Positions 1 to 48,212 of a stretch of DNA of 64,000 nucleotides are shown here, piece by piece. Both the position numbers and the translations under genes were made by a program. The stretch spans positions 32,001 through 96,000 of the forward strand of contig CAVQNG010000005.1 of assembly GCA_963713825.1 (NCBI GenBank), given 5' to 3'. This DNA comes from an uncultured Acidobacteriota bacterium (lineage in GTDB: Bacteria; Acidobacteriota; Thermoanaerobaculia; Multivoradales; JAHEKO01). Below the pieces are notes generated by a model. The model was given only the letters and a program-made list of their open reading frames with translations. It was not told where the DNA came from and did no database searches. How positions within the stretch are numbered: position 1 is the first letter of the stretch; the number at the start of each line of letters is the position of its first letter.

Positions 1-588
1 ACGCGTTCGGTTGTCGAGGCGTTGCCCGATACTTCCCGCGACTGGGGCCATTGGGCCTGGTACTGGCAGGACGTTTTCGAAGGAGAATACAGCGCCGCAC
101 TCGTCGGTCTCGAGACAAGCACCGACGAATGGATCCGGATCAAGATGGTGGCCCGGCCCAATGCCCTGTTCATGGCCCAGGCCTACCACTGGCTCGGGGA
201 GGTGGAGAAGGCGTCTTCAGCGTACGAGAAATCGAGGCGGCTCCTGGAGCCCGAGGTGGAGGCCTCACCCGGAGATCCACGGCTTCGTAGCTCTTTGGGG
301 TTGGCCTACGCGGCGCTTGGACGCAAAGAGGACGCCATCCGCGAGGGACTCCGCGCAACCGAGTTGCTGACCCAGGAAGAAGACGGTTTCTACTACCTCC
401 CGTACGCGATGGATCTAGCGCACATCTACACGATCCTCGGTGAGGACGACCTGGCCCTCGACCAGATCGAGAACCTGCTCACCAACCCTTCGTGGTTGTC
501 CCCCGCGTGGCTGCAGATGGACCCGCGCTGGGCGCCCTTGAGGGACCTACCGCGCTACCAGGCGTTGATCGAAAAGCACGCGACCTAG
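1..588 (+). CDS. C-terminal TPR region of a protein starting before the window; probably another kinase-TPR protein (5' partial)
   Basis: Frame 1 is open from base 1. TPR-like helices (LGLAYAALGRKEDAIREG). The tail 'LQMDPRWAPLRDLPRYQALI' resembles the ends of the kinase-TPR proteins K8, K13 and K14. Confidence 0.75.
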   Translation, partial: TRSVVEALPDTSRDWGHWAWYWQDVFEGEYSAALVGLETSTDEWIRIKMVARPNALFMAQAYHWLGEVEKASSAYEKSRRLLEPEVEASPGDPRLRSSLGLAYAALGRKEDAIREGLRATELLTQEEDGFYYLPYAMDLAHIYTILGEDDLALDQIENLLTNPSWLSPAWLQMDPRWAPLRDLPRYQALIEKHAT

Positions 589-635
589 GCCTTGAGGGTC
601 GAGGTGGGCCTGGGCGGATTCTCGAAGGAGGTCCG

Positions 636-699
636 TCCTGGAGGACCCCAGGGGGCTTTCCTCCCTTCCGCTGCAAGAACCCCCTGGAGTCCTCCAGGA
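636..699. repeat. GC-rich inverted repeat (~20 bp stem); REP-like element or terminator
   Basis: tcctggaggaccccaggggg (636-655) pairs with ccccctggagtcctccagga (680-699), 19/20; intergenic. Confidence 0.7.
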
Positions 700-785
700 A
701 CGAACCCCCAAGACCTGTTGCTGCCGACAATCGCGAGGAACATCGGGTAGGGGCTGACCCAACTCACCCTGATATCTTGCAGCCG

Positions 786-2021: not shown

Positions 2022-2074
2022 AAAGTGGCTGGCACCTGGTTTGAAGCGAGGTCGTCGGCTCGGAATGCGTCTGG

Positions 2075-2118
2075 TTGACTGGAGGCATTTCAATGTTTAG
2101 ACTAGTCGTAGACTAGTC
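2075..2118 (+). promoter_or_regulatory. sigma70-type promoter and operator of TA module 1
   Basis: TTGACT(2075-2080)-17 bp-TAGACT(2098-2103); two copies of the palindrome GACTAGTC at 2100-2107 and 2111-2118. Confidence 0.7.
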
Positions 2119-2131
2119 GGAGACGGGATTG

Positions 2132-2368
2132 ATGAGCGAAGTCGGCGCCTACGAAGCGAAGACGCACCTACCGAAGCTCTTGGAGCGGGTGAGGCAAGGG
2201 GAGCGGATCACAATTACGCGGCATGGAGTTCCTGTAGCGCACCTCGTGCCGGTTTCGGGCTCCCAGAGCGAGCCTGTCGCTCGGATCATCCAGGAGCTGC
2301 GCGAGTTTCGACGTGGTAGGCACCTTGGCGGCGCAGTCAAGGAGTTGATCGAGGAGGGCCGATCGTGA
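2132..2368 (+). CDS. Phd/YefM family antitoxin
   Basis: 'VGAYEAKTHLPKLLERVRQGERITITRHGVPVAHLVP' Phd signature; GTGA overlap with the PIN toxin. Confidence 0.9.
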   Translation: MSEVGAYEAKTHLPKLLERVRQGERITITRHGVPVAHLVPVSGSQSEPVARIIQELREFRRGRHLGGAVKELIEEGRS

Positions 2369-2772
2369 GCCTGGTGCTCGACTGTTCGGTGGCCATGGCG
2401 TGGTGTTTCGAGGAAGAGACTGGTGACTATGGCGATCGCGTGCTGGATGCCTTGGAGCTGGAAGAGGCTCTCGTGCCCTCGGTCTGGTCTCTGGAAGTGG
2501 CCAATGTTCTGGTGATTGCGGAGAGAAGGGGGCGCCTCAAAGTAGGAGAGTCGGCCCGGTTCCTCGAGCTGCTGCAATCGCTACCGATCTTCGTGGAGGA
2601 AGTCTCGCTACCCCGGGCCACCGGTGCTGTTCTGTCTCTCGCCCGCGAGCTCGATCTGTCCGCCTACGACGCTTCCTACCTGGAGCTGGCAATGAGATCG
2701 GGCGTCCCTCTGGCGACCCACGACCAGGCCCTGATCCAAGCCGCGGGCACCGTAGGCGTACCTCGATTCTGA
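2365..2772 (+). CDS. vapC: VapC (PIN domain) toxin
   Basis: 'LVLDCSVAMAW', 'LEVAN', 'LSAYDASYLELA', 'LATHD' PIN acidic residues. Confidence 0.9.
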   Translation: MSLVLDCSVAMAWCFEEETGDYGDRVLDALELEEALVPSVWSLEVANVLVIAERRGRLKVGESARFLELLQSLPIFVEEVSLPRATGAVLSLARELDLSAYDASYLELAMRSGVPLATHDQALIQAAGTVGVPRF

Positions 2773-2927
2773 AGGCCTCTGAGTCACCAGGGTCGTTGGC
2801 CCTCGTTGCAGATGCCGGGTTGCCCCTGCACCCATGCAGTAGAATCCAGATCGATCGATTCAACCAGCAGGATCGAGGTCGCAGGCTGAGCCGCGACCGC
2901 AAAGGGTGGCCTCGCTAGGGCACGTTC

Positions 2928-5666
2928 ATGATCGGCACGACCCTTTCCCACTATCGCATTCTCGCCAAGCTCGGTGAGGGCGGGATGGGTGAGGTGTACC
3001 GGGCCGAGGACCTCAATCTCAAGCGCCACGTTGCTCTCAAGGTGCTGCCGCCCGAAGTCGAAGGCAGCCAGGACAAGTTGGAGCGATTCCAGAGAGAGGC
3101 GGAGACGCTAGCGGCCCTCGACCATCCCAATATCGTCACGCTGTACAGCATCGAGGAGACTGATGGACAGCGCTTCCTCACGATGCAACTGGTCGAGGGC
3201 AAGCCGCTTGCCGACTTGATCACCGCCGAGGGCATGTCGGTCGCCAGGGTCCTCAAGATCGCCATCTCCCTGACTGAGGCCCTGAGGGTGGCGCATGACA
3301 AGGGTGTCGTCCACCGCGACCTCAAGCCGGCCAACGTGATGATCGATCAGGAGGGGCGTGTCAAGGTCCTGGACTTCGGCCTCGCCAAGCTGCGTCGGAC
3401 GGACTTCGACGCAGGAACCAGCTTGATGGCGACCGAAGCGATGACACAGGAAGGGGTCATCCTGGGGACGATTCCCTACATGTCGCCCGAGCAGATCCAA
3501 GGTGAGCAAGTGGATCACCGCACCGACATCTTCTCGCTGGGAATCATGCTCCACGAGATGCTCTGTGGAAGACGACCTTTCGAAGCGCCGAATACCGCCG
3601 CGCTGATGTCGAGCATACTGCGTGACCCCCCGACCCCGGTACGCGAGATCAAGCCCGAGCTGCCCGAGAAGATCGAAGAGATACTGCAGCGGTGTCTGGA
3701 GAAGGACCCGCTGCTGCGCTACCAATCAGCGGACCAGATCTGGCTCGAGCTGCGGGACGCCCAAAACAAGATCGGGGGCGCCGCCTCGGAGGAGATCGAA
3801 GCCGCTGTCGAGCGAGTCCTGGCCAAGGTCCCGACCGGGGCGTTGCCGACCTCGACCCCTGCGGCCGAAGTGACGCCAGAGGTAAGCGGTGCAGCTCCAG
3901 CGCGCCAGAGCCGGTGGTCCTACTGGTTGGCCGGGCTCGGGATGGTGTGGGGGATGGTCTTCGCCGTGTACTACGTGTTCTTCGACGGTGGAGAACCAGA
4001 CAGGCCCAGTGCTCCCCCGCCTACGAATCTGAGCCACAAGCAGCTGACGTCTCAGCCTGGTGTCGAGCAGATACCCAGCCTATCGCCCGATGGGGAATGG
4101 ATCGTCTATTCCGGCCAGGGCCCGGAGCATCAGGACATCTTTCTGCAAAGCGTCGGAGGCCAAACCCCATTCAACCTCACCGAGGACTCGGGTGCGGACA
4201 ACCTGCAGCCGGCGTTCTCTCCCGATGGTGAGAGGATCGCCTTCCGCTCGAGTCGCGACGGTGGTGGCCTCTTCGTCATGGGCCGTACGGGTGAGGCAGT
4301 CCGACGGGTGACTCGGGAGGGTTTCAATCCTTCGTGGTCTCCTGACGGCACCCAATTGGTCTACTCGACCGAGAGCGAGGGCCTCAATCCTCTCAATTGG
4401 GAAGGGCGAAGCTCGATCTGGGTGGCAGCGGTCGCGACCGGCGAGTCTCGCCAGTTGGTCGAAGAGGACGGTGTGGTTCCGAAATGGTCGCCGAACGGTG
4501 ACCGGATTGCGTTCGTGTCACGGATGGGCGACATGACCCAGATGGACATCGTGACGGTACCTGCCGACGGAGGAGAGAAGGTCGCTGTTACCCTCGACAA
4601 GGCCACGGACTGGGGGCCGGCCTGGTCACCGGATGGGCGGTACATCTACTTCGCCAGTGACCGCAGTGGAAGCATGAATCTCTGGCGAGTCGAAGTTGAC
4701 GAAAAGTCCGGCAAGGCCAGGGGTGAGCCCGAGCCGCTGACGACGCCCGCAACCTACCTGGCGCACCCGACCCTGTCCGGCAATGGGGACCGACTCGCGT
4801 ACACGTCGGTCCTGATGACGCAGAACGTCCAGAGGCTGGTCTTGGACCCAGAGACTGCGCAGCCGGAGGACCGGCCCGAATGGGTCACCAGTGGGTCTAT
4901 TCAGTTCTCGTCGGTCGATATCTCTGCAGATGGTGAATGGGTGGTCTTCTATACCCGCGCTCGCCCGGAGGGCGATCTCTATGTCGCTCGTGTCGATGGC
5001 TCGAGCCTGCGTCAGCTGACGAGCGACGAGGCGATGGATCGGGTGCCTCGGTGGTCGCCGGACGGTGAATGGGTGGCCTTCTTCTCGGACCGTAGCGGAT
5101 CGCTCCAGATCTGGAAGATTCGCCGGGACGGAAGCGACCTCCAGCAGCTCACGGATTCCACCCCCAATGTCGGTCTGCTTGCTTGGTCTCCTGATGGTGA
5201 GCGCATCGCGGCCATGAGGGGACTGAACGAGGACAATCGCACCGTCGTATTCGACCCGAATCGTGCCTGGACGGAGCAGGACGCCGAGTTCTTGCCGCAG
5301 ATCGAGGACGGTGGTCCTCAGATGGTCGTCACCTCCTGGTCACCGGACGGCACGATGTTGGCGGGCCAGGCCGGCTTCCCGGGAGTCGGCGTGATGGTGT
5401 ACTCGTTCGATTCGGGTTCCTACGAGCGGCTGACGGACTTCGGTGAGTGGCCGGTCTGGCTGCCCGACAGCCGTCGACTGATCTTCGTCTACGAGGGCAA
5501 GCGATTCTTCGTCGTCGACTCGGAAACGAAGGAGACTCAGGAGATCTTCTCCGTCCCCCGAGATGTCATCGGCCCGCCCCGCATCTCTGGTGACGGCACC
5601 CAGGTCGTCTTCAGCCGCCGGGTCACCGAAGCCGATATCTGGCTGCTGACCTTCAGCAGCGAGTAG
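2928..5666 (+). CDS. K1: Ser/Thr protein kinase + TM + PD40/TolB-like beta-propeller
   Basis: [26 protein letters not shown]; TM 'WLAGLGMVWGMVFAVYYVFF'; repeated WSPDG motifs. Confidence 0.95.
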   Translation: MIGTTLSHYRILAKLGEGGMGEVYRAEDLNLKRHVALKVLPPEVEGSQDKLERFQREAETLAALDHPNIVTLYSIEETDGQRFLTMQLVEGKPLADLITAEGMSVARVLKIAISLTEALRVAHDKGVVHRDLKPANVMIDQEGRVKVLDFGLAKLRRTDFDAGTSLMATEAMTQEGVILGTIPYMSPEQIQGEQVDHRTDIFSLGIMLHEMLCGRRPFEAPNTAALMSSILRDPPTPVREIKPELPEKIEEILQRCLEKDPLLRYQSADQIWLELRDAQNKIGGAASEEIEAAVERVLAKVPTGALPTSTPAAEVTPEVSGAAPARQSRWSYWLAGLGMVWGMVFAVYYVFFDGGEPDRPSAPPPTNLSHKQLTSQPGVEQIPSLSPDGEWIVYSGQGPEHQDIFLQSVGGQTPFNLTEDSGADNLQPAFSPDGERIAFRSSRDGGGLFVMGRTGEAVRRVTREGFNPSWSPDGTQLVYSTESEGLNPLNWEGRSSIWVAAVATGESRQLVEEDGVVPKWSPNGDRIAFVSRMGDMTQMDIVTVPADGGEKVAVTLDKATDWGPAWSPDGRYIYFASDRSGSMNLWRVEVDEKSGKARGEPEPLTTPATYLAHPTLSGNGDRLAYTSVLMTQNVQRLVLDPETAQPEDRPEWVTSGSIQFSSVDISADGEWVVFYTRARPEGDLYVARVDGSSLRQLTSDEAMDRVPRWSPDGEWVAFFSDRSGSLQIWKIRRDGSDLQQLTDSTPNVGLLAWSPDGERIAAMRGLNEDNRTVVFDPNRAWTEQDAEFLPQIEDGGPQMVVTSWSPDGTMLAGQAGFPGVGVMVYSFDSGSYERLTDFGEWPVWLPDSRRLIFVYEGKRFFVVDSETKETQEIFSVPRDVIGPPRISGDGTQVVFSRRVTEADIWLLTFSSE

Positions 5667-5780: not shown

Positions 5781-5816
5781 TTGCAAGAGATGCCTGCAAT
5801 GCCTACACTCGATGCA
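5781..5816 (+). promoter_or_regulatory. promoter of TA module 2; probably leaderless transcript
   Basis: TTGCAA(5781-5786)-17 bp-TACACT(5804-5809); ATG 7 nt downstream with no SD; ATGCCT repeated in the spacer. Confidence 0.55.
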
Positions 5817-6058
5817 TGCAGTACACGATTCGAAACATCCCGGGGGCGCTGGATGCCATGCTGAGAGACCGAGCCAAGAGGGAAGGCAAGAGTCTCAACG
5901 AAGTGGTGATCGAGGCGTTGGCGCGAGCCATGGGCTTTTCCAGGGAGCCCGTCCGCCAAAGGGATCTGAGCCGTATCGCGGGGACCTGGATCGACGACCT
6001 CGAGTTCGATCGCGCAATCGAAGACCAGGATCAGATCGATGAGGATCTCTGGCGGTGA
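5816..6058 (+). CDS. ribbon-helix-helix (FitA/VapB-like) antitoxin
   Basis: 'MQYTIRNIPGALDAMLRDRAKREGKSLNEVVIEAL'; GTGA overlap with the PIN toxin. Confidence 0.85.
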   Translation: MQYTIRNIPGALDAMLRDRAKREGKSLNEVVIEALARAMGFSREPVRQRDLSRIAGTWIDDLEFDRAIEDQDQIDEDLWR

Positions 6059-6447
6059 GGATCGCCCTCGACACCAACAGCTACTCCGATCTGTGTCGGG
6101 GAGTGCCAGAGGTCCGCGAGCGGTGCGAGTCCGCAGACTCGATCTACCTACCTCTGGTTGTTGTGGGTGAGCTCCGCGCTGGCTTTGCCGTGGGGAAGCA
6201 CGGCTCGGAGAACGAGGGGGTTCTGCAGCAGTTCCTGATTCAGCCCGGTGTCGAGGTCCTACTAGCCGACGAAGCAACGACCTTCCACTACGCGGCCGTC
6301 TACCGGCAGCTGAGATCCCAGGGTTCCCCCATTCCGACCAACGACATGTGGATCGCCGCCCTTGTGATCCAACACGGTCTCGTCCTGCTGCACCGCGATC
6401 GGCACTTCGACCAGCTGCCTCAGTTGGCGACGATTCAATCGGCCTGA
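6055..6447 (+). CDS. vapC: VapC (PIN domain) toxin
   Basis: 'IALDTNSY', 'VVGELRAG', 'PIPTNDMWIAA', 'RDRHF'. Confidence 0.9.
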   Translation: MRIALDTNSYSDLCRGVPEVRERCESADSIYLPLVVVGELRAGFAVGKHGSENEGVLQQFLIQPGVEVLLADEATTFHYAAVYRQLRSQGSPIPTNDMWIAALVIQHGLVLLHRDRHFDQLPQLATIQSA

Positions 6448-6460
6448 CGAAACTCGAGCG

Positions 6461-7495: not shown

Positions 7496-10198
<2,703 letters not shown>

Positions 10199-11240: not shown

Positions 11241-12563
11241 CTACATCTGCCGGTAGCCCTGGACCGCCCAGTTGAGGTCGAGTCGCTCTCCCTGCCAGCG
11301 CGGAAACCCTGTGTGGGAGTCGATCGAGATGTCCTCCTCCTCGAGCAGGCTCTCGAGCTCCGCCAAGGGGTCCTCGACCAGGGGTGGTGGCGGCGGCACG
11401 GTCGGAATCTCCCAGCCTTGGGGCCGGAAGAAGCGCAGCTCACCATCTGTGGTGTGTTCGATGCGGTATCCCTCTTCGTGGACGGCCCGATGATGACGGC
11501 GACACAGTAGAACCAGGTTGTCGAGACTCGTTACCCCTCCGTTGGCCCAGTGTTTCAGGTGATGAGCCTCGCAATGCTTCAATCCGCAGCCCGGAAACTG
11601 GCAGCCTTCGTCCCTGGCGGTCAGAGCGCGGCGAATCGGGGTGGGAATCGTGCGAGTGCGGCGGCCGACATCGAGGACGTTGCCCTCGGAGTCGTGTTTC
11701 ATGATCACTTTGCCCGCATCACAGGCGAGCCGCCGAGACGTTTCCGCGGAAACGTCTGTGCCGTCCTCCAGCATGGACACTCCGGGCGCATCGGGGTCCT
11801 CGAGCACTTGGCTCTCGACATGCACCACCACCTGTAGACGCTCGGCCCGGGTGCCCTTGTCGATTCCACCGGCCAGCGCACTCTCCGCCACCAGGCCCAA
11901 GGCATCTGCTCGTCGCTGGCGGACCGGGACTCCATCGCCTCGCTCGTCCTTGGTCTCCCTCTCTCTGTCATAGAGCACCTGCTCGGCTGCCTCCAGAGCT
12001 TTCAGCAGAGCGGCTCCCACTTCCGGCTCCAATCGTGCCCGTAGCACGATCATGCCGTCGTAATCCGTGGTGGCCGCCAGGTAGCGGCTGGCGTGACGTA
12101 GATTCTCTCGGTGGACCTCGTCCTGCCGATCGACACGGCGCCAGGCCCGCACCAGCTTCTCCACATGGGCGGCCGTTCCAGCCCGAGCGAATTCGAGGAG
12201 CTCCGCCTCGTTCTCAGGGGTCGCCACTCGGGTCAGGGCCCTGACCTTGGAGTAGGAGAGCTCCCCACAACCCATCGCCTCGGAAAGAAGCGGCAACTCG
12301 CCCAGGGCCTTGGCCACTCGTACCTTCTCCCGGGCCGCGCCCAGGTCGAGCCCAGTGCGCCAGTTGAGCCAATGGGCACAGGAGCGAAAGCCGGTGTTCC
12401 AACCGCTCTTCTCGTCGAACTCCCGGATCAGGACCAGCAGGTGGTAAGTGGCAGCCTGGATCTGGGCCGAGAGCTCGGCGATTCGCTCACCGAGCTGGTC
12501 GACCTCCGAGGTTCTGGGACCAAGCTGAGAGTGAGAATTCGGGGAGGCAATAGGTTCGATCAT
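11241..12563 (-). CDS. DUF222 (13E12-repeat family) + HNH endonuclease protein
   Basis: 'AHWLNWRTGL...AREKVRVAKAL' DUF222; 'RDEGCQFPGC...EAHHLKHWANGG.TSLDNLVLLCRRHHRAVH' HNH; SD GGAGG before ATG 12563. Confidence 0.9.
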   Translation of the reverse strand: MIEPIASPNSHSQLGPRTSEVDQLGERIAELSAQIQAATYHLLVLIREFDEKSGWNTGFRSCAHWLNWRTGLDLGAAREKVRVAKALGELPLLSEAMGCGELSYSKVRALTRVATPENEAELLEFARAGTAAHVEKLVRAWRRVDRQDEVHRENLRHASRYLAATTDYDGMIVLRARLEPEVGAALLKALEAAEQVLYDRERETKDERGDGVPVRQRRADALGLVAESALAGGIDKGTRAERLQVVVHVESQVLEDPDAPGVSMLEDGTDVSAETSRRLACDAGKVIMKHDSEGNVLDVGRRTRTIPTPIRRALTARDEGCQFPGCGLKHCEAHHLKHWANGGVTSLDNLVLLCRRHHRAVHEEGYRIEHTTDGELRFFRPQGWEIPTVPPPPPLVEDPLAELESLLEEEDISIDSHTGFPRWQGERLDLNWAVQGYRQM

Positions 12564-12857
12564 GGCGTTCCCTCCAGGAGTCACGCACCTATTATAAACC
12601 CCGTATTTTCAACGCTTTAGCTTGCCCACTGGCGCACGATCGAGGGGCCTAGAGGCATCTTCGTTACGCTTCTCGAGGTACGCCACGCAGGGAGCAACCC
12701 AGGGCCACACAGACCCTTTCAAAGGTCGATCTCAGAGGCTCCGAAAATTGACGCGAAAATCCTGTCAAGTCTTTTCTTCGATCTTTTCGATCAATCTGTG
12801 TGTTACTCGACCATCGACCGACTGGCTCCTCCTGAAGTCAGTGGAGTAGCTGAAGCC

Positions 12858-18378: not shown

Positions 18379-18408
18379 TGGTCCTGGGGCTTGGGTCCTG
18401 GGTCCTGG
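18379..18408. repeat. STRR-like heptamer tandem repeat (GGTCCTG / GGGCTTG) immediately upstream of the K4 start
   Basis: tggtcctggggcttgggtcctgggtcctgg; the same units occur in the K3, K4 and K12 coding inserts. Confidence 0.7.
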
Positions 18409-25478: not shown

Positions 25479-25540
25479 CGGTCGTTGCGGCCGGCACGGG
25501 GTCCGGCCGCTTCCTGTTGCTTGTGGGTGGCGCCGATCAT
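25475..25540 (-). other. 21-codon bridge mini-ORF MIGATHKQQEAAGPRAGRNDR linking the K7 stop to the K6 start
   Basis: ATGA overlaps at both ends; contains the hairpin GCGGCCGG-N8-CCGGCCGC. Confidence 0.7.
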
Positions 25541-28245: not shown

Positions 28246-28258
28246 GAAGATCCCTCGG

Positions 28259-30646: not shown

Positions 30647-30708
30647 CGGTCGTTGCGGCCGGCACGGGGTCCGGCCGCTTCAGGCTCCTTATGGGTAGTG
30701 CCGATCAT
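30643..30708 (-). other. 21-codon bridge mini-ORF MIGTTHKEPEAAGPRAGRNDR linking the K9 stop to the K8 start
   Basis: ATGA overlaps at both ends; 16-bp direct repeat ATGATCGGCACTACCC at 30693-30708 and 30631-30646. Confidence 0.72.
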
Positions 30709-33425: not shown

Positions 33426-33524
33426 TCGTCAACTCCTCGAGCCGGCGGATGTCTTCACAATCCGCACGTTGAGCTCCGATCGCAGGATGTAACGGAACTT
33501 GTTGGCGCCTATTGTATGACGGAA
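32494..33524. repeat. ~1.03 kb direct repeat, copy 1 (promoter region + kinase domain of K9)
   Basis: Aligns to 35457-36487 at constant offset 2963; about 8 mismatches by eye. Confidence 0.92.
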
Positions 33525-33548
33525 TGGCCGGCGGGGAGATCGACCGAC

Positions 33549-33692
33549 TCACAACTGCGATCGGCGGATTGAATCTGCTGTGGCGTGCTCGACGCGGCCG
33601 AGCTTGGTGTCCTCGGCTCGGTACACCTCACCCATGCCGCCTTCACCCAGCTTGGCGGTGATTCGGAAGTGGGAGAGGGTTGTGCCGATCAC
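33549..33692 (-). pseudogene. orphan kinase 5' stub: [33 protein letters not shown] + 14 unrelated codons
   Basis: GTG overlaps the K10 stop (GTGA); 33 codons of kinase N-terminus, then homology breaks at ~33594. Confidence 0.85.
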
Positions 33693-36388: not shown

Positions 36389-36487
36389 TCGTCAACTCCT
36401 CGAGCCGGCGGATGTCTTCACAATCCGCACGTTGAGCTCCGATCGCAGGATGTAACGGAACTTGTTGGCGCCTATTGTATGACGGAA
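35457..36487. repeat. ~1.03 kb direct repeat, copy 2 (promoter region + kinase domain of K10)
   Basis: Aligns to 32494-33524 at constant offset 2963. Confidence 0.92.
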
Positions 36488-36535
36488 CGGTTGTAACGGG
36501 GGCCGTCCGCATTGGCGAGCGAGCGAGTCGAGGTT

Positions 36536-38779
<2,244 letters not shown>

Positions 38780-39013: not shown

Positions 39014-41812
39014 ATGATCGGAACGACATTGGCGCATTTCAAGATCACCGGCAAGCTCGGTGAGGGTGGCATGGGTGAGGTCTATCGAGCTGAAGACAGC
39101 AAGTTGGGTCGGGAAGTGGCGATCAAGGTGCTACCAGAGTTGGTGGCCGGTGACGCCGAGCGCATGGCTCGTTTCGAGCGTGAAGCCAAGCTCCTCGCGG
39201 CCCTCAACCACCCCAACATCGGCGCGATCTATTCCCTTGAATCTGCCGGACAGGCGGGGGCAAGCCCCGCTCCTACAGAGACCGATGCCGATGTAGGGGC
39301 GCCCCTTCCGGGCGCCCGGGAGGGGGCGAGCCCAGGACCCAAGGCCCAAGACCCAGGTCTCCCGATCCACTTTCTCGTCCTGGAGCTCATCGAAGGCGAA
39401 TCCCTCGCCGAGATCCTGGCGCGGGGCCCTCTCGGTCTCGAGAAGGCGATGCAGGTCGGGCAGCAGGTGGCCCTGGCCTTGGAGTCGGCCCACGACAAGG
39501 GGGTCATTCATCGTGACCTGAAACCGGCCAACGTCATGCTGACCCAGAATGGAAGCGTCAAGGTGCTGGATTTCGGTCTGGCCAAGGCCTGGGACGTAGA
39601 AGAGACCTCGGGCAGCGCTCCGCTGATCAGCCGTTCGCCAACCCTTACGCAAGGGATGACCGAGGTCGGCGTGCTGCTCGGTACCGCGGCCTACATGAGC
39701 CCGGAGCAGGCGCGCGGCAAGCCGGTCGACAAGCGATCGGACATCTGGGCCTTCGGCGCCGTGCTGCTCGAGACCCTGACCGGGCGCAAGGCCTTCGGCG
39801 GCGACACGATCACCGACATGATCGCTGCGGTCGTAGCGCGAGAGCCAGAGTGGGAGAGGCTACCGGCCGGTACTCCAAAAGCAGTGACTCGCCTGCTACG
39901 CCGCTGCCTCGAGAAAGACCAGGAGCAGCGCTTACGTGACATTGGCGATGCGCGGTTGGAGCTCGAGGAGATGCTGGCCAATCCAGAAAGTCTGCACGCC
40001 GAGCCCGAGGTTGTGGCAGCATCTTCCAAGACCAGCCTGCTGTGGAAGGTTGGCGTCGCGGCACTGGCATTGCTGACAATGGGTCTGGGCTTTGCGCTGT
40101 GGCGTGCCAGTCAATCGGAACCGCAGCAGATCACCCGCGCCTTCATCCCGGCCCCGACTGGAGGGGATTACGACCTGGCCACCGACTATCCTGCCCCTGT
40201 GGCCGTCTCTCCGGATGGCCGTACTCTGGTTTTCGGGGTGCAGGAGGAAGAGATCAAGAGCCTTTGGGTGCGTGACCTCGACGACCTCGAGGCTCGCCCG
40301 CTGGCTGGAACCGAGGGGGCCATGTATCCGTTCTGGTCACCTGACAATCGCCACATCGGTTTCTTCGCTCAAGGCAAGCTCAAGAAGATCGAAGTCGCCG
40401 GCGGTCCAGCGATGAGCCTCTGCGATGCTCCCAACGGCAAGGGAGGCAGTTGGAACGCAGATGGGATCATCGTCTTCGCGCCAGCCCACACCACAAACCT
40501 GCAGAGTGTGTCGTCCGCCGGAGGTGAGCCTACGGATGTCACCTCGGTCGACCCTGAGAAGGGTGAAGACAGCCACCGGCATCCGCGGTTTCTACCGGAT
40601 GGGGAGCATTTCCTCTACGCCGCCCGTGTCGGTTTTGGAGGTTCGAGTGAAAACAGCCGGTTGATGATCGGTTCGCTGTCAGGCGAGTCCCGGGAGTTGA
40701 TGCCCGGCTCCTCCAACGTCGAGTTCGCAGCCGGACATCTCCTCTACGTGTACGAGCGAACCCTGATGGCGCGGCCTTTCGATGCCAGTCAACTCGAGCT
40801 CACGGGGGATGCCTTTCCAATCGCCGAGGAGGTCTGGGGCGACCAGGGAGCCTTGCTGGGAGTCTTTTCAGCTAGCGAGAACGGAGTTCTCGCCTACCAG
40901 ACCGGCACACCGCGCGAAGACGTGAACTCGCAACTGCAGTGGTTCGATCGCTCGGGCCAGATGCTGGGTGAGGTAGGAACTCCGGACCCCTACGCCGAAG
41001 TGAGCATCTCGCCGGATGGAACTACGGCGGTGGTCAACAAGAGGGATCCAGGGAGCTCCAATCGGGACCTCTGGCTGGTGGACCTGGAACGGCAGCTCAA
41101 GACGCGGTTCACCTTCGATCCGGCTCAGGATTGGATCGGTGTTTGGTCGCCGGACGGAGCCCGGATCGCGTTCAGCTCTGAGCGCAGCGGCACCGGGGAC
41201 CTCTACGTCAAGTCGGTCACAGGTGGAGGTGAAGCGGAGCTGCTCTACGACGACGACACGCAGAAGTACCCGGCCTCCTGGAGCGGGGATGGACGGTATC
41301 TGTTCTACGAATCGTGGGGCTCCGGTGGGGAGTCCAACCTGTTCGCCCTCGATCTCGAAGAAGGCGGCGAGCCAATGGCGATTCAGGCCTCCAACTTCTC
41401 CCAGAGAGTCCCAGTAATCTCACCCAATGGTCGATGGCTCGCCTACTCCAGCAACGAATCGGGACACAACGAGATCTATGTCACCGCCTTTCCTGAAGGT
41501 GGCAGAAAGTGGCAGGTCTCCACGCAGGAAACCGGGTACGCACGCTGGGGAAGCGACGAGGACCTCTTCCTGATGGGCCCCACGGGTGAGCTGCGGATTG
41601 CTGAGGTCGACGGCTCGAGCGAGACGTTTCGGATAGGCCCTATTCGGAAGATCGCCGACTTCAGGCTCCAGACTCTCGGTTTCGACTTCGACCCTTCTCC
41701 CGACGGTCAGCGAATCTTGATTTCGCAAGTCCTCGAAGAGGAGGGGCAGGGTGCCAAGATGAATCCCATGACCCTCGTTATGGGCTGGACCGCGGACCTC
41801 GAACGGCCTTAG
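39014..41812 (+). CDS. K12: Ser/Thr kinase + TM + PD40 beta-propeller; 42-aa REP-derived N-lobe loop
   Basis: Catalytic motifs; SD GAGGAG; TM 'VGVAALALLTMGLGFALW'. Confidence 0.95.
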   Translation: MIGTTLAHFKITGKLGEGGMGEVYRAEDSKLGREVAIKVLPELVAGDAERMARFEREAKLLAALNHPNIGAIYSLESAGQAGASPAPTETDADVGAPLPGAREGASPGPKAQDPGLPIHFLVLELIEGESLAEILARGPLGLEKAMQVGQQVALALESAHDKGVIHRDLKPANVMLTQNGSVKVLDFGLAKAWDVEETSGSAPLISRSPTLTQGMTEVGVLLGTAAYMSPEQARGKPVDKRSDIWAFGAVLLETLTGRKAFGGDTITDMIAAVVAREPEWERLPAGTPKAVTRLLRRCLEKDQEQRLRDIGDARLELEEMLANPESLHAEPEVVAASSKTSLLWKVGVAALALLTMGLGFALWRASQSEPQQITRAFIPAPTGGDYDLATDYPAPVAVSPDGRTLVFGVQEEEIKSLWVRDLDDLEARPLAGTEGAMYPFWSPDNRHIGFFAQGKLKKIEVAGGPAMSLCDAPNGKGGSWNADGIIVFAPAHTTNLQSVSSAGGEPTDVTSVDPEKGEDSHRHPRFLPDGEHFLYAARVGFGGSSENSRLMIGSLSGESRELMPGSSNVEFAAGHLLYVYERTLMARPFDASQLELTGDAFPIAEEVWGDQGALLGVFSASENGVLAYQTGTPREDVNSQLQWFDRSGQMLGEVGTPDPYAEVSISPDGTTAVVNKRDPGSSNRDLWLVDLERQLKTRFTFDPAQDWIGVWSPDGARIAFSSERSGTGDLYVKSVTGGGEAELLYDDDTQKYPASWSGDGRYLFYESWGSGGESNLFALDLEEGGEPMAIQASNFSQRVPVISPNGRWLAYSSNESGHNEIYVTAFPEGGRKWQVSTQETGYARWGSDEDLFLMGPTGELRIAEVDGSSETFRIGPIRKIADFRLQTLGFDFDPSPDGQRILISQVLEEEGQGAKMNPMTLVMGWTADLERP
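39253..39358. repeat. GTAG-REP pair plus heptamer repeats inside the K12 coding sequence
   Basis: ggcgggggcaagccccgctcctac (39253-39276), gtaggggcgccccttccgggcgccc (39293-39317), CCCAGGA/CCCAAGG/CCCAAGA/CCCAGGT (39331-39358). Confidence 0.8.
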
Positions 41813-42370: not shown

Positions 42371-42377
42371 TCGGGCA

Positions 42378-42857: not shown

Positions 42858-42894
42858 AGAAGATCGGTTCTATCGGGCGCGCAGCGTCGGAAGG

Positions 42895-43401: not shown

Positions 43402-43535
43402 GGGAACCTCCTTGTTTGTTGGGTGGGCAAGGCTAGCACTTTTCGAATGTGGCAACGGGGCCTGCTGTTGCACGGGAGCTAGTGCGGTATCCTGTGGCGC
43501 GCATCCTGTTACCTACGTTGGAAGGGATCAGGCGG

Positions 43536-45833
43536 ATGATTGGCTCGACACTTTCGCACTTTCGAATTACCTCCAAGCTCGGTGAAGGCGGGATGGGTGT
43601 GGTTTGGGGAGCAGAGGACACCGATCTGCATCGACCTGTTGCTTTGAAGGTGCTCTCGGACGAGACGCTGGCCCGCGAGGACATGCGGGCCCGATTCATG
43701 CGAGAGGCACGCACGGCGGCGGCCCTCAATCACCCCAACATCTGCACGATATACGAGGTCGGCGAAGTCGACCGGGTGCCCTTCATCGCCATGGAGCTCA
43801 TCGAGGGATCGAGTCTCGAGAAGCGTCTGAGCGAGAGGCAACTGGCTCTGTCTGAGCTCCTCCGGATCGCGACTCAGATCGCTGAAGCCATGGCGGCGGC
43901 CCACGCCGGTGGAATCGTGCACCGGGATCTGAAGCCAGGCAACGTCATGCTGACTGGAGACGGGCAGGTCAAGATCCTCGACTTCGGCCTCGCCAAGCCG
44001 CAGACGGCGCTGCTGGGTGGGGAAGGAGACGAGACCCTAGCCCAGCCCATATCGGCCGAGATGACGCAGCAAGGGACGATTCTCGGCACGGTTTCCTACA
44101 TGTCTCCGGAGCAGGCCGCGGGAAGAGACGTGGATTCACGATCGGACATCTTCTCGTTCGGAGTCCTGCTCTACCAGATGACGACAGGTCAGCTACCGTT
44201 CCGCGGTGACACTTCGACCTCGACCCTGGCCAAGATCCTCGAGACCGAGCCGGAATCGATTTCGGTTGTGCGCCAGGGATTGCCACCGGATCTCGAGAGG
44301 GTCGTTCGACGTTGTCTGCAGAAACAGCCGGACGCTCGATACAACGACACACGCGACCTGGTGGCTGAGCTGCGCGATCTCCAAACCACGGGTGAGAGCC
44401 AGGCGGCTGCACCGGTCGAGCAAAAAGGCGAGAGCAAGAAGATCCCAGCATGGATCTGGGGTGCAGCACTGGCTATCTTGGTGGCCGCTGTGGTCTTCCT
44501 TGCGGGGCCGTTTCGCGAGAGCGCCGTGGAGCCGGCGGCCCCCGAAGTGGTTGCCGTCGCAGAGATACCCTCGGTGGCTGTCCTGCCTTTCCACAATCTG
44601 AGCGCCGACGAAGACAACGCCTACTTCAGCGCCGGCATCACCGAGGAGATCATCAGCAAGCTCTCCCGCATCGATGGGTTGGAGGTCGCCTCCCGTAGCT
44701 CAGTTGCAGCGTTCACCGATACCGCCCGCGATGTGCAGCAGATCGGTCGAGATCTGGGCGTGCAGTATCTCCTCGACGGGAGCGTTCGACGCGCCGGCGA
44801 TCAGGTTCGGGTCTCGGCGCAACTGGTCGACGGTTCGACCGGGCGCAATCTCTGGTCGGAGGATTTCGACGGTAACCTCGAGGACGTCTTCGCCATGCAG
44901 GAGAAGACCGCGCTCAAGATCGCCGAGCGATTGGATCTCGAGCTCAGCCCCGAAGAACAGCGCGACGTGCAACGCCATTTGACCGACAACGTGGCGGCTT
45001 ATGACGCCTTTCTCAGAGGAATGTCACTGTCGCGCAGTTGGGGCGATCGAGAGAGCCTGCAGCAGGCGGCGGAGCACTTCGCTCTGGCCCTGGAGCAGGA
45101 CCCTGACTTTGCCGCCGCCATGGCAGGCTGGGCCTTCGTCGAGTCCGACATCTATCGAAACTTCGACACCACCGAAGACCGTATCCAGCATGCCGAGAGG
45201 CTGGCGGAAAGGGCTGTGGAGCTCGATCCCACGATGCCGGATGCCAGCCATGCCCTCGGACTCATCGCGGGCAACCGCTTCGACTACGAGCGGGCGTCGC
45301 GACTGCTCCGAGAGGCCGTGCGGCTAGATCCCAAGGAAGCCCGTTTCTGGGACAATCTCTCCTGGGCACTGGCATACGAGACGCCGCCCGATGGAGATGG
45401 AGCGGTCCAGGCGGCACGCGAGGCGGTTCGCCTGCAGCCGATCTTCCCCGGTGCCTACTATCACCTGGGCCGCGGTCTAATCGCCCAGGGGAAGTACGAA
45501 GAGGCGCGACAGGCCTTCGAGACGTCTCTCGAGCAGAATCCCAGATTCAGCTCTGGGCACTTGGGGCTGGCCCAGGTCCATTTGGCTCTCGGAGAGTGGG
45601 ACGCTGCGTTGGCCGAGATCGAGAAGGGTGGCCTGAAGGACACGGCCATCGTTGCCTACTATGAGACTGCGGCCTTCGCCGGAAAGGGCGAGCTCGACGA
45701 GGCCTTGCAGTCTCTGGAGAGGACGCTCGAGCTCGACTACCGTGACTTCGCAAATCTCAACGCCAGCCCCTACTTCGCGGCCCTTCGGGAAGACCCGCGC
45801 TTTTCTGAGCTCGTTGAGCGCTACCAGGGCTGA
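43536..45833 (+). CDS. K13: Ser/Thr kinase + TM + TolB-N-like + TPR
   Basis: MIGSTLSHF start; HRDLKPGN, DFG; TM 'WIWGAALAILVAAVVFLAG'; 'SVAVLPFHNLS'; TPRs. Confidence 0.95.
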   Translation: MIGSTLSHFRITSKLGEGGMGVVWGAEDTDLHRPVALKVLSDETLAREDMRARFMREARTAAALNHPNICTIYEVGEVDRVPFIAMELIEGSSLEKRLSERQLALSELLRIATQIAEAMAAAHAGGIVHRDLKPGNVMLTGDGQVKILDFGLAKPQTALLGGEGDETLAQPISAEMTQQGTILGTVSYMSPEQAAGRDVDSRSDIFSFGVLLYQMTTGQLPFRGDTSTSTLAKILETEPESISVVRQGLPPDLERVVRRCLQKQPDARYNDTRDLVAELRDLQTTGESQAAAPVEQKGESKKIPAWIWGAALAILVAAVVFLAGPFRESAVEPAAPEVVAVAEIPSVAVLPFHNLSADEDNAYFSAGITEEIISKLSRIDGLEVASRSSVAAFTDTARDVQQIGRDLGVQYLLDGSVRRAGDQVRVSAQLVDGSTGRNLWSEDFDGNLEDVFAMQEKTALKIAERLDLELSPEEQRDVQRHLTDNVAAYDAFLRGMSLSRSWGDRESLQQAAEHFALALEQDPDFAAAMAGWAFVESDIYRNFDTTEDRIQHAERLAERAVELDPTMPDASHALGLIAGNRFDYERASRLLREAVRLDPKEARFWDNLSWALAYETPPDGDGAVQAAREAVRLQPIFPGAYYHLGRGLIAQGKYEEARQAFETSLEQNPRFSSGHLGLAQVHLALGEWDAALAEIEKGGLKDTAIVAYYETAAFAGKGELDEALQSLERTLELDYRDFANLNASPYFAALREDPRFSELVERYQG

Positions 45834-45905
45834 ACCAGGCTGACTTGTCGTTGGATTTTGGATTCGCTGGCGCTGGGAACCGCGCCAGACACCTGGTCCG
45901 GGAAC

Positions 45906-48212
45906 TCACCCTGCTCGATCGATGTGTGGGATGTTCGCCTTTTCCAGCAGCGCTTTGAACCTGGGCTCGGAGCGCAGGTTGTCGAGGAGCGGCCAGTTGA
46001 GGAACGAGATCAGCGGGTTGCGCTCGTCGTAGGCCTTCTCCAGCCAGCCGAGCGCGGCCTCCTTATCGCCCAGGCCGGCGTGACCCCAGGCGAAGAACAT
46101 GGCCGAGACGTACTGACCCGCGGCTCGCGCCTCGAGCTCGGCGAGAATCTCTTCGGCAAGGCCACGCTCCCCGGCGGCACCATAGGTATAGGCCAACCAT
46201 CCCAGGTAGTAGGAGCCTCTCCCCGATAGAGAAGTCGCCCGCTCCATCGTCGCGATGGCTTCGTCGTGCCGACCGCTCTTCGAGTAGGCGCCGCCGAGAA
46301 CCCAATGGGTGAAGAGGAAATCGCTCTCCATCTCGAGGGCTCGACCGAGCGCCGGCAGGGCCTCCTCGTTCTTGCCGGCCACGAAGTGTGCCAGGCCCAA
46401 GCAGGTGTTGGCATAGGGTGAGAGTGGATCGATTTCGAGTGCCTCTGTAATCATCGACACGGCCTCGTCGTATCGATGGGCAAAGCTGAGCAGGAAGCTG
46501 TACCAGCACCTGGCCAGCGCCGCTTCGGCATTGACCTCGATCGAGCGTTGGAGGCTCGACTCGGCCCTTTCGAAGTCCCACTCGAGCCAGAGCTGGATGA
46601 GCGCCCTGGCGGCGTGAAGCTCGGCTAGGTCGGGCTCGAGCTCGGTTGCGCGGTCGATGGCGGCCTGCGCCTTGGCGAGTGCGACGCCTGGATCGAGTCC
46701 GTAGAAACCCAGGCTGCTGTACGCGTTGGCCAGTCCGGCGTAGGCAAGGGTGTAGGAGGGATCCTTCCGGGTCGCCTGCTCGAAGAAGGCCGCGGCCTTC
46801 TCGAGCGAGCCAACCTCACGCCGGTACCAGTTGTGTTGTCCCTTGAGATACAGATGATAGGCCTCGAGGTTGTGGGTTTGACGCTTGCTGGGCTTGGTAT
46901 CGGCCGCACCACCTACCTGTCCCCGGAGGACCTCGGCGATGCTCTCGGAGATCTCGTCCTGGACGGCGAAGACGTCCTTCATGTTGCGGTCGTAGCGTTC
47001 CGACCAGATGTTGAATCCGTCCTCGACGTTGATGAGTTGGGCGGTGACGCGCAATTGGTCGCCAGCGGTCTTGACGCTGCCATCGAGGAGCATCGTGACG
47101 TTGAGAGCCTGCCCGACATGCCGGGTGTCGTGGGCCTGATCCTTGAAATGGAACGCCGAGCTGCGGGAGGCGACCCGTAGACCTCCGATCTGGGTCATGG
47201 CATTGAGGATCTCCTCGGCCATGCCTTCACAGAAATACTCCTGGTCCCGCTTGGGGCTCAAATCGCGGAAGGGTAGGACGGCGATGGAAGGTGCGACGTC
47301 AACCCCACCTATCGGCTCCGTTGGCGGCGGGGATGCCGAGGGCTCGTCCGGCCGGCTGTCCGAGATGGCCTCCAAAGCGAACGACAGATCTCGCACCGAT
47401 TGAAAACGCTCACCGACGTCCTTTTCCAGGCACCGGCGGACGATGCTCTCCAGGACCTGCGGCACCGAGGAGTTCGAGCTCGGGGGCATTGCCGGATCCT
47501 CACGCAGGATCGCACTGAGAATGTCCGCCGAGGAATCGCCGGGAAAGGCCCGGGTTCCGTAAAGCATCTCGTGGAGGAGGGTGCCGAAAGAGAAGATGTC
47601 GGAGCGGTGGTCGGATTCGTGCCCCCGGGCCTGCTCGGGAGACATGTACCCTATCGTTCCCATGACCGAACCGGGTTGGGTGTGCTGGGTGAGTGTCGCA
47701 AGCGTCGCGCCATCGCCAGTTGATGCTCGACGGTCGCTCCACTTCGCCAATCCGAAATCGAGGATCTTGGCGCGACCGTCCCGAGTGACGAAGATGTTCT
47801 CGGGCTTGAGGTCTCGGTGCACGATGCCCTTGTCGTGGGCCGCGGCCAGCCCGTGCGCAATCTCGACAGCAAGGCCGAGCGCTCTGCTGGTGGTCAAGCT
47901 GTCGGACTCGAGCCGCTCTCGGAGAGTCTGGCCTTCCAGTAGCTCGGTGACGGCATACCCAAGACCCTCTTCGTTGCCGATGTCGTAGAGCGCCAGGATG
48001 TTGGGATGGGCGAGAGCCGCGACCGCCCTCGCCTCGAGCTCGAATCGCTCGAGCGCCCTTGGCTCCTGAGCCACCTTGGCAGGCAGCACTTTGACCGCGA
48101 CTTCACGCCCCAGACGGGTATCGCGGGCCCGATAGACCTCGCCCATGCCGCCCGCACCGAGGGAGTCGAGAACCTCGTAGGGTCCCAGTCGTGTACCTGC
48201 TGCCAGTGCCAT
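45906..48212 (-). CDS. K14: Ser/Thr kinase + TolB-N-like + TPR; no TM helix
   Basis: MALAAGTRLGPYEV start; HRDLKPEN, DFG; 'SIAVLPFRDLS'; TPRs. Confidence 0.93.
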   Translation of the reverse strand: MALAAGTRLGPYEVLDSLGAGGMGEVYRARDTRLGREVAVKVLPAKVAQEPRALERFELEARAVAALAHPNILALYDIGNEEGLGYAVTELLEGQTLRERLESDSLTTSRALGLAVEIAHGLAAAHDKGIVHRDLKPENIFVTRDGRAKILDFGLAKWSDRRASTGDGATLATLTQHTQPGSVMGTIGYMSPEQARGHESDHRSDIFSFGTLLHEMLYGTRAFPGDSSADILSAILREDPAMPPSSNSSVPQVLESIVRRCLEKDVGERFQSVRDLSFALEAISDSRPDEPSASPPPTEPIGGVDVAPSIAVLPFRDLSPKRDQEYFCEGMAEEILNAMTQIGGLRVASRSSAFHFKDQAHDTRHVGQALNVTMLLDGSVKTAGDQLRVTAQLINVEDGFNIWSERYDRNMKDVFAVQDEISESIAEVLRGQVGGAADTKPSKRQTHNLEAYHLYLKGQHNWYRREVGSLEKAAAFFEQATRKDPSYTLAYAGLANAYSSLGFYGLDPGVALAKAQAAIDRATELEPDLAELHAARALIQLWLEWDFERAESSLQRSIEVNAEAALARCWYSFLLSFAHRYDEAVSMITEALEIDPLSPYANTCLGLAHFVAGKNEEALPALGRALEMESDFLFTHWVLGGAYSKSGRHDEAIATMERATSLSGRGSYYLGWLAYTYGAAGERGLAEEILAELEARAAGQYVSAMFFAWGHAGLGDKEAALGWLEKAYDERNPLISFLNWPLLDNLRSEPRFKALLEKANIPHIDRAG

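Follow-up and report, generated by a model that had tools for sequence, protein, structure and literature searches.

Kinase-half gene conversion in a dense array of receptor-type Ser/Thr kinase genes from an acidobacterium

Our study concerns a 64,000-nucleotide stretch of DNA from an uncultured Acidobacteriota bacterium (the window; G000:C5:32001-96000, on contig C5 of the host assembly G000), the first 48 kb of which carry fourteen paralogous genes, K1 to K14, for receptor-type Ser/Thr kinases made up of an N-terminal kinase half and a C-terminal sensor half. The data support the action of homologous recombination among the kinase-coding halves of these genes. We consider the array, with a probability of about 75%, to be a tandem family that evolves by birth and death, with gene conversion restricted to its kinase halves, that is, a case of ordinary gene-family evolution and neither a programmed shuffling device nor an immune system. 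The preliminary description of this DNA had seen in it a cassette-like locus in which homologous recombination shuffles a conserved signalling domain onto new ligand-binding domains; recombination among the kinase halves is borne out by our analysis, but the acquisition of new ligand-binding domains is not supported, and it is the conserved half that is exchanged.

Separate histories of kinase and sensor halves

Self-comparison of the window reveals a block of 1049 bp that is shared by K9 (30705..33425, minus strand; kinase, transmembrane (TM) helix, PD40) and K10 (33689..36388, minus strand) at 98.7% identity, with 14 mismatches, and runs from about -100 to about +946. The copy in K9 (32479..33527, minus strand) comprises about 100 nt of upstream DNA and the first 946 nt of the coding sequence, while that in K10 (35442..36490, minus strand) ends just before the TM helix at aa 311-329. 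Sliding identity between the two genes remains at 99-100% from about -100 to about +900 and then falls abruptly to 45-55%; the sensors are 36% identical, in agreement with the earlier claim of a near-identical kinase block joined to different sensors. K10 is thus a mosaic of a K12-like PD40 sensor with a kinase and 5' untranslated region (UTR) of the K9 type.

The synonymous divergence (dS, NG86) between K9 and K10 is 0.032 in the kinase and 1.28 in the sensor. The genes K2 (7496..10198, minus strand) and K7 (25537..28245, minus strand), both coding for a kinase, a TM helix and PD40, are 80-93% identical over nt 1-790, with kinase halves that are 92% identical in amino-acid sequence and sensors that are 33% identical; here dS is 0.675 in the kinase and 1.64 in the sensor. 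With synonymous divergence lower in the kinase than in the sensor of both pairs, constraint at the protein level is ruled out as the cause of the likeness. K3 (12858..15626, minus strand) and K4 (15623..18374, minus strand) are 100% identical over nt 292-500 and 90-98% identical over nt 43-292, and K2 and K4 are 92-99% identical over nt 1-150, which substantiates the mosaics that had been reported. The K9/K10, K3/K4 and K2/K7 tracts are all confined to the kinase half. A Sawyer-type run test on 13 kinases (633 polymorphic sites, 2000 permutations) returned p<=0.0005 for six of 78 pairs, K2/K4, K3/K4, K2/K5, K3/K5, K4/K5 and K7/K11, five of which are found among the neighbours K2-K5.

The comparison was extended to the 63 full-length kinases of the genome. 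Four of the 1952 pairs have kinases at least 80% identical (K9/K10, C3_1869k/C4_118k, K2/K7 and C5_156k/C5_153k), and the sensors of these four pairs are 33-55% identical; with divergent sensors in all four of these pairs, there are no recent whole-gene duplicates and recent likeness resides only in the kinase half. The TPR-class kinases C3_1869k (G000:C3:1869956-1873057) and C4_118k (G000:C4:118151-121057) are 93% identical in the kinase and 42% in the C-terminus; as they lie on different contigs, homogenization of the kinase half is not limited to neighbouring genes. Comparison of K7 with its orthologue in the related genome G005 gives a dS of 0.78 for the kinase and 0.28 for the sensor, and this excess in the kinase indicates that this half was replaced after the split from G005.

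The 5' ends of the genes had also been described as homogenized, a claim that our data do not support. Across 55 kinases (1010 pairs), the proportion of same-residue codons that are identical is, for codons 1-70, 0.53 in pairs less than 50 kb apart, 0.51 in pairs farther apart on the same contig and 0.495 in pairs on other contigs; for codons 90-280 the corresponding values are 0.49, 0.475 and 0.47. Amino-acid identity is 0.65-0.72 in codons 1-70 versus 0.47-0.49 in codons 90-280. We rejected a general homogenization of 5' ends by conversion, since this likeness is mostly conservation at the protein level, is alike between contigs and is seen throughout the genome.

The comparison of separate kinase and sensor trees, suggested in the preliminary description, reveals a clear conflict. 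A tree of the kinase halves of 20 PD40-class genes groups K9 with K10 (support 100/100) as sister to C5_156k and C5_153k (95/99), and K2 with K7 (100/100) inside a clade with K3 and K4 (97/96). The sensor tree groups K10 with K12 (100/100), next to K6 and C3_1879k, and leaves K9 and K3 outside a ten-member clade (98/96) that holds K2, K4, K6, K7, K10 and K12. On the sensors, the approximately unbiased (AU) test rejects both K9+K10 (p=7e-9) and K2+K3+K4+K7 (p=0.012); on the kinases it rejects K10+K12 (p=0.0035). K2+K7 is not rejected on the sensors (p=0.11). We therefore discarded the idea that the K2 and K7 sensors are not sisters; K2 and K7 may go back to an old duplication, after which the kinase was conserved or converted. 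K6 (22743..25478, minus strand; kinase, TM helix, PD40) is paired with C3_1879k in both trees, and so not every gene is a mosaic.

Against this background of local exchange, whole-gene descent dominates. In a tree of 66 kinase domains, built by a quick method, one clade contains 14 of the 18 PD40-class kinases and another 24 of the 28 TPR-class kinases, and the PD40 label requires four changes on this tree versus 15.9 when labels are shuffled. Switches of sensor class (K1; C5_141k/C3_1781k) are few and, given their deep position in the kinase tree, probably old.

The history of the K10 mosaic can be followed in other genomes. Five public orthologues of the K10 sensor were found (P0001-P0005, 76-95% identity), three of which (P0001, P0003 and P0004) carry a kinase of the K9/K10 type at 92-96.5% identity. 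P0002 and the most divergent orthologue, P0005, carry another kinase, the best match of which in the host genome is C3_1879k (74%), followed by K6 (67%). This P0002-type kinase is the one that the sensor tree would lead us to expect on an unconverted K10, which points to the K9-type kinase on K10 as derived, to K9 as donor and hence to conversion from K9 to K10. In G031, the genome of P0003, K9 and K10 have orthologues on separate contigs, with kinases that are 90% identical, so the first transfer predates the split from G031; the 98.7% identity of K9 and K10 is a later re-homogenization between copies that are now adjacent. Since the kinase dS between K9 and K10 (0.032) is well below that of the K9 kinase against the congener G004 (0.18), this re-homogenization is younger than the split from G004. 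Divergence from G004 is strongly uneven along the locus (dS 0.23 for K9, 1.06 for K12 and 0.82 for a beta-lactamase-like gene at 49733-51199), which suggests recombination between species or conversion affecting K9.

The array, its genes and their turnover

The window is the densest part of a cluster of about 166 kb with 30 paralogous receptor-type Hanks Ser/Thr kinase genes, which occupies contig C5 between 6 and 172 kb. A Pkinase domain was detected with Pfam in 14 of the 17 large open reading frames (ORFs) tested, K1-K14, all with scores of 109.8-184.3 bits against a gathering cut-off of 31.7. Nine of these genes have PD40 C-termini by Pfam (K1, K2, K3, K4, K6, K7, K9, K10 and K12; PF07676 at 59.5-175.2 bits, cut-off 20.9), and the C-termini of the other five are TPR domains (K5, K8, K11, K13 and K14), while the ten genes from K2 to K11 are co-oriented on the minus strand. 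The preliminary description was accurate in all of these counts: 14 kinases in 48 kb, ten of them co-oriented, nine with PD40 and five with TPR. The dense array that it placed within 48 kb is real but runs beyond the window, as seen from the 30 genes on C5 and from the TPR C-terminal tail (Pfam) of a fifteenth kinase gene at 1..588 (plus strand; G000:C5:30081-32585), which starts upstream. Assuming about 90 kinase genes in 5.42 Mb, a figure rounded from 97-98 matches, 0.80 kinases would be expected per 48.2 kb, and the Poisson probability of at least 14 is 2.4e-13.

The host, an acidobacterium, is known from the metagenomes of sediments; DNA of this stretch is present in 20 runs belonging to 13 studies, which sampled freshwater, salt-marsh and marine sediments. 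Its assembly amounts to 5.42 Mb in 38 contigs and is 96% complete. A profile hidden Markov model built from the kinases of the window matches 97 ORF pieces genome-wide, and a looser group of kinases is found on contig C3 at 1.63-1.89 Mb. Pkinase matches are present in all 31 genomes searched from the same order (5 to 182 first-look candidates each), and the kinase expansion is therefore not special to this genome. Among 8000 candidates scored, 6522 are relatives of the K10 sensor at E<=1e-10, nearly all of them kinase-plus-PD40 proteins.

The catalytic motifs HRDLKPxN and DFG are found in all 14 genes, and the G-loop and VA[IL]K are in frame in 13. In K4 the HRD and DFG motifs are in frame and the G-loop and VAIK lie in the shifted frame of the N-lobe; the statement that all of the kinases keep VAxK/HRDLKP/DFG thus holds for 13 of the 14 ORFs. 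A single TM helix follows the kinase domain in 12 of the 14 proteins, taken as a hydrophobic 19-mer with a mean Kyte-Doolittle score of at least 1.5 (aa 304-341); no 19-mer above this threshold is present in K5 or K14. The one kinase of the array that was modelled, K10, gave an AlphaFold (AF2) model with a mean pLDDT of 84.8 from a 63-row alignment, in which a kinase (1-298) is joined through a disordered linker to a helix (312-329), with an all-beta region after it (342-890, mostly with pLDDT >85). Its kinase superimposes on PknA and PknB of M. tuberculosis and Stk1 of S. aureus with TM scores of 0.86-0.88 at 30-37% identity (E down to 1.5e-22). A fold search with full-length K10 returned mostly kinase matches and, for the sensor, only the generic repetitive propeller 2ymu (TMq 0.20). 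The motifs, the TM helix, the K10 model and the superposition make 'receptor-like Ser/Thr kinases' a fair description of these proteins. Each gene is predicted to encode a cytoplasmic PknA/PknB-like kinase, usually with one TM helix, and an extracytoplasmic PD40 beta-propeller of about 550 aa or a TPR domain. By analogy with PknB and PknD, binding of a ligand outside the cell would activate the kinase and lead to phosphorylation of cytoplasmic targets.

The remaining genes conform to this plan. K1 (2928..5666, plus strand; kinase, TM helix, PD40 propeller) belongs to a deep PD40 subgroup, and its kinase groups with those of the TPR class. K3 encodes a kinase, TM helix and PD40 and has a loop insert of about 75 nt with an imperfect heptamer tandem (15312-15342). 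K4, with the same domains, is broken by a 1-nt insertion near 18094 relative to K3 and is either a pseudogene or an assembly error; a further heptamer tandem (AGGACCC-like; 18380..18408, minus strand) lies just upstream of its ATG. K12 (39014..41812, plus strand) consists of a kinase with a loop insert, a TM helix and a PD40 sensor that is sister to that of K10. A kinase, TM helix and TPR domain are encoded by K8 (28259..30646, minus strand), K11 (36536..38779, minus strand; orthologues at 79-80% aa identity in the congeners G003 and G004) and K13 (43536..45833, plus strand). K5 (18507..20876, minus strand; G005 orthologue at 87% aa identity) and K14 (45906..48356, minus strand) encode a kinase plus TPR by Pfam; the start of K14 is uncertain, with its kinase domain beginning at aa 60 of the ORF. 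Some genes are tightly packed: the K4 stop overlaps the K3 start (15623-15626), and K8 and K7 are separated by 13 nt (28245-28259), a possible sign of co-transcription or of translational coupling between some neighbours. Other genes between the kinases encode an MFS transporter and SnoaL-family and DinB-family proteins (Pfam).

An orphan stub had been reported among these genes, for which the 534-aa ORF S (20988..22592, minus strand) was considered. S encodes a PD40-like protein (Pfam PD40, 4.5e-5) that appears to be secreted, with an N-terminal hydrophobic segment and no kinase. We rejected its reading as a kinase-less remnant: its likeness to the K1 sensor reaches only E=0.001, and it is a conserved single-copy gene, with orthologues at 85-86% aa identity and a dN/dS of 0.16 in the same position in G003 and G004. 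S could be a soluble periplasmic partner of the kinase array. A real orphan does exist in the form of a remnant of the first 100 nt or so of a kinase gene (33593..33692, minus strand), the GTG of which overlaps the K10 stop codon (GTGA). This remnant is 90% identical to the 5' end of K7, and the same kinase 5' remnant follows the K10 orthologue in G031 (L020).

Gene content differs among congeners around conserved anchors, a comparison that had been proposed as a check. The order on the bridging contig G003:C143 is S, K6, the unrelated gene X, a 53-aa kinase 5' remnant, K9, K11, K12, u41915, SnoaL, DinB, beta-lactamase-like and MMPL, and G004:C87 has the same order without K6. Both contigs lack K7, the bulk of K8, K10, K13 and K14 with the flanking genes in place, and so show absence at the syntenic site: K8 is represented only by a 5' remnant of 42-53 aa, and K13 is missing between the DinB and beta-lactamase-like genes. 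In G005 the K3 orthologue, inside which the contig ends, lies directly beside the PIN gene; in the window K2, an unknown ORF and an HNH gene stand between the two. No orthologue of the K10 sensor above 66% nucleotide identity was found in G001-G005 (assemblies 70-100% complete), with absence shown at the syntenic site in G003 and G004 only. The 5' remnants at these junctions place the breakpoints of gain and loss within the first 100-160 nt of kinase genes, a conserved stretch.

Gene X, a stretch of about 1.9 kb beside K9 (G003:C143:23470-25381 and G004:C87:46950-48861), is 96.5% identical between the two congeners. Its only close copy in the host assembly, C21:1-659 (81% aa identity), abuts the interior of the K10 sensor on contig C21; this joint is either a structural variant of a co-occurring strain or a chimeric contig end.

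These observations suggest the following model. Whole units would be gained and lost by recombination within the conserved 5' kinase-coding DNA, leaving 5' remnants as scars, and gene conversion between paralogues would overwrite the kinase half and, in K9/K10, about 100 nt of upstream DNA as well. Conversion tracts would stop where homology ends, near the TM helix, and the outcome would be mosaic genes such as K10, with its K12-like sensor and K9 kinase. Conversion is probably a passive by-product of tandem homology and not a selected mechanism, and the sensor halves probably keep separate conserved specificities, which would make the array a stable repertoire of periplasmic or environmental sensors.

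Weighing of the model and its alternatives

Several points weigh against this model. The run test assumes exchangeable sites, and the short 5' runs of K2/K5, K3/K5 and K4/K5 may reflect conservation. Some of the groups submitted to the AU test were chosen after the trees had been seen; K9/K10 was set beforehand from the self-comparison. The relatives are fragmented assemblies of the metagenome-assembled type, 70-100% complete, and a 'missing' gene could lie elsewhere. Estimates of dN/dS are means for entire domains and draw on one or two orthologues per gene, and positive selection on a few ligand-contact sites is possible. The tracts regularly end at the boundary between kinase and TM helix and include the 5' UTR, a pattern that selection for new links of sensors to kinases or promoters could produce as well. 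The assembly of the genome is flawed in places (the alternative contigs C21 and C22, a degraded region at 51-58 kb and the K4 frameshift). Finally, the function of the kinases is deduced from their domains alone.

The first alternative is that the array is a selected, cassette-like repertoire, in which recombination shuffles the signalling domain onto new ligand-binding domains for immune-like or biotic sensing as in the receptor-like kinase (RLK) and nucleotide-binding leucine-rich repeat (NLR) clusters of plants. The mosaic genes with their conflicting trees, the occurrence in nature of the K10 sensor with two types of kinase and the variable gene content of congeners would all fit such a reading, but the exchanged part is the conserved half and not the variable one, and the kinase clades track sensor class. 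In nine orthologue comparisons covering six genes, sensor dN/dS is 0.078-0.189, which does not exceed that of the flanking genes and S (0.08-0.22), and kinase dN/dS is 0.055-0.186; the sensors are conserved and not diversifying, at least on average. Diversifying sensors, which the preliminary description proposed to look for domain by domain, are thus not found, and its analogy to plant receptor-like kinase clusters is not supported on the same point.

Other genes inside the array could also be taken in favour of a cassette system. The two interspersed toxin-antitoxin (TA) modules that had been noted are present. One is a type II pair (2129..2772, plus strand) of a Phd/YefM antitoxin at 2129-2368 (PF02604, 7.7e-11) and a PIN toxin at 2365-2772 (PF01850, 1.8e-8), and the other, of PIN type (5812..6447, plus strand), combines a 76-aa ORF with no family match in Pfam and a PIN toxin at 6055-6447 (Pfam PIN, 4.6e-13). 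A gene for an HNH endonuclease with DUF222 (11241..12584, minus strand; Pfam) is mobile-like. It has a second copy in the host genome at G000:C14:87197-88534 (93% aa identity), at least seven DNA matches in G004 and two in G003, and a homologue at 54% in another genome (L020:17373-18848), where the K10 orthologue is 6 kb away. Pfam scans of the non-kinase ORFs, several of which have no match at all, yielded only the families HNH/DUF222, PIN, Phd, MFS, SnoaL and DinB, with no recombinase, invertase or reverse transcriptase, in accordance with the earlier statement that no recombinase is visible; site-specific repeats were likewise not found. Silent promoterless donor cassettes are absent from the window, where 14 complete genes have their own starts, motifs and full kinase 5' ends and there is a single orphan remnant of 100 nt. 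The gene content of K10-K14 is identical in the contigs C5, C21 and C22 (0-2.7% difference), and kinase expansions, with 20 to 180 candidates, are found across the whole order.

The immune-like component of the cassette reading draws on matches of the kinases to the PADLOC models PD-T4-6, mad6 and MkoA. In all six of the kinases scanned these matches end at about aa 280-360, that is, at the end of the kinase domain, and they therefore reflect generic kinase homology; S, the HNH gene and three unknown ORFs gave no PADLOC match. We rejected the PD-T4-6, mad6, MkoA, C3a189 and PglW matches as evidence of defence, because only the kinase domain is covered, which leaves the suggestion of an immune-like repertoire without specific support. 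Taken as a whole, the cassette reading appears unlikely.

A broader proposal would make the array an evolvability locus through which other organisms or the cell envelope are sensed, and a bacterial counterpart of plant receptor-kinase clusters; conversion that takes in promoter-proximal DNA would rewire sensor-kinase pairs, unequal crossing-over at the 5' ends would swap sensors between strains and heptamer tracts would switch receptors. We regard this combination as speculative and quite improbable.

The heptamer tracts have also been considered by themselves, as a contingency locus in which slipped-strand changes in the copy number of CCCAGGA-like tandems would switch single kinases and give stochastic expression of the repertoire. 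Exact 10-mers of the heptamer type are in excess both in the window (9 against 0.34 expected) and in the genome (146 against about 32), and of 18 tandem clusters genome-wide five lie in four kinase genes. Imperfect 7-nt (CCCAGGA-like) and 8-nt tandems occupy the beta4-beta5 loop inserts of several kinases; tandems in loops or upstream are located at 15312-15342 (K3), 18059-18089 (K4), 18380-18408 (upstream of K4), 25199-25228 and 27747-27777, and at G000:C5:107811-107848. The kinase gene C5_107k has a frame break inside its four-unit array that one more unit would restore, and the K4 frameshift lies beside the K4 array. Yet the arrays are short (about four units) and imperfect (81-83% matches), the break in K4 is a 1-nt indel that changes no unit, and a break in K12 on contig C22 falls outside any repeat. 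The loops are low-complexity P/Q/D-rich inserts of variable length, the frame breaks may be assembly errors, and no copy-number variation was observed. Phase switching of the kinases is thus very unlikely.

The quality of the assembly bears on the last alternative, that the array or the K9/K10 identity is an artefact of collapsed or chimeric joining of dispersed paralogues or strains. Contigs C21 and C22 are near-copies that serve as alternatives for 33.5-72 kb of the window; the start of C22 coincides exactly with the end of the K9 repeat copy, and in C21:1-590 a different gene is joined to the interior of K10. At 51.3-58 kb (G000:C5:83300-90000) C5 carries the MMPL gene and its neighbours as fragments of 220-550 aa and differs from C21:17646-24779 and C22:17772-24565 by 15-25% mismatches and 40-60 gaps per kb, while C21 and C22 have intact ORFs there of 776, 371, about 460 and 650-765 aa. 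Either the consensus of C5 is poor in this region or the region represents a divergent allele that has decayed, and given the degradation seen there the 1-nt frameshift of K4 may be an error too. The joints of the array are nevertheless bridged by other sequences. Record 2 of X1 spans the junction of K10 sensor and kinase (35296-36487, 1192 nt, 3 differences), although X1 may be the source sample and so not independent; record 9 of X12 spans the junction between the region upstream of K9 and the 3' end of K10 (33495-33844, 350 nt, 0 differences), and records of X2 and X3 span the K11/K12 and K13/K14 junctions. This bridging evidence leaves out read depth, which is inflated at kinase domains by kinases of other organisms, and joints with sides of 21-34 nt (90% likeness), and it gives no weight to stretches that lack cover. 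With P0001, P0003 and P0004 from other assemblies carrying a full-length K10 sensor on a K9-type kinase, G003 and G004 keeping the K9-K11-K12 order and C21 and C22 repeating that of K10-K14, we consider an artefact extremely improbable.

Relation to known systems and significance

The genes described here are ordinary members of the receptor-type Hanks kinase family. Like PknA, PknB, PknD and Stk1, their products begin with a cytoplasmic kinase, complete in its catalytic motifs, which is followed by one TM helix and a sensor outside the cytoplasm. They differ in the sensor itself, which is a PD40 (TolB-like) domain of about 550 aa or a TPR domain and not PASTA or NHL. The sensor of PknD is a beta-propeller. 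The number and arrangement of the genes differ as well, with about 90 in 5.4 Mb and 30 of these in one cluster, whereas M. tuberculosis has 11 dispersed kinase genes.

In plant RLK and NLR clusters the recognition domains are under diversifying selection, unlike the sensors of the array with their dN/dS of 0.08-0.19. The likeness to systems of programmed cassette recombination, such as pilE/pilS, vlsE, shufflons and diversity-generating retroelements, is superficial and consists of related sequences lying side by side and of recombination between them. The array differs in having no silent cassettes, and no dedicated recombinase, reverse transcriptase or site-specific repeats were found in it; moreover, its conserved part and not its variable part is exchanged. 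TLR1 and TLR6 are reportedly another case of tandem paralogues with gene conversion.

The S. aureus lpl cluster resembles the kinase array in its tandem, co-oriented paralogues and in conversion that limits the divergence of one part of the gene, and the account of its evolution takes the 3' part of one ORF, the spacer and the 5' end of the next as the unit (PMC2568036). Evidence for a similar unit in the kinase array comes from the 5' remnants and from the shared block of 5' UTR plus kinase. Membrane Ser/Thr kinases (STKs) that combine a Pkinase domain in the cytoplasm with WD40 or TPR domains in the periplasm have been described in Planctomycetota and Myxobacteria, where species-specific clades are ascribed to 'duplication and/or recombination' and some duplicates are adjacent (PMC11032199, citing Perez 2008). 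The sections of that paper on these clades use trees of the kinase domain only (PMC11032199); here the two halves were analysed separately, which brings out the conversion limited to the kinase half and the purifying selection on the sensors. The many STK paralogues of another acidobacterium, Ca. Solibacter usitatus, generally share less than 50% full-length identity and gave no sign of positive selection in a codon-based test, and the passages that deal with them describe neither a dense array nor domain-specific conversion (PMC3174227). In the literature searched we found no description of gene conversion or concerted evolution of the kinase half in bacterial STK arrays.

Large families of receptor STKs with periplasmic repeat domains are thus already known from Acidobacteriota, Myxobacteria and Planctomycetota, and their diversification has mostly been inferred from trees of the kinase domain. 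To this the present analysis contributes a documented instance of conversion restricted to the kinase half, along with one sensor that carries alternative types of kinase. The array provides a clean and datable case of separate histories within one gene, in which the kinase half and its upstream DNA are homogenized, the sensor is kept by purifying selection and the units vary between species. Trees of the kinase domain alone will accordingly mislead the assignment of orthologues and of 'species-specific expansions' in these phyla, where sensor domains are the better markers of orthology. The natural chimeras of sensor and kinase, K10 as compared with P0002 and P0005, allow one to ask whether the specificity of the output sits in the kinase half.

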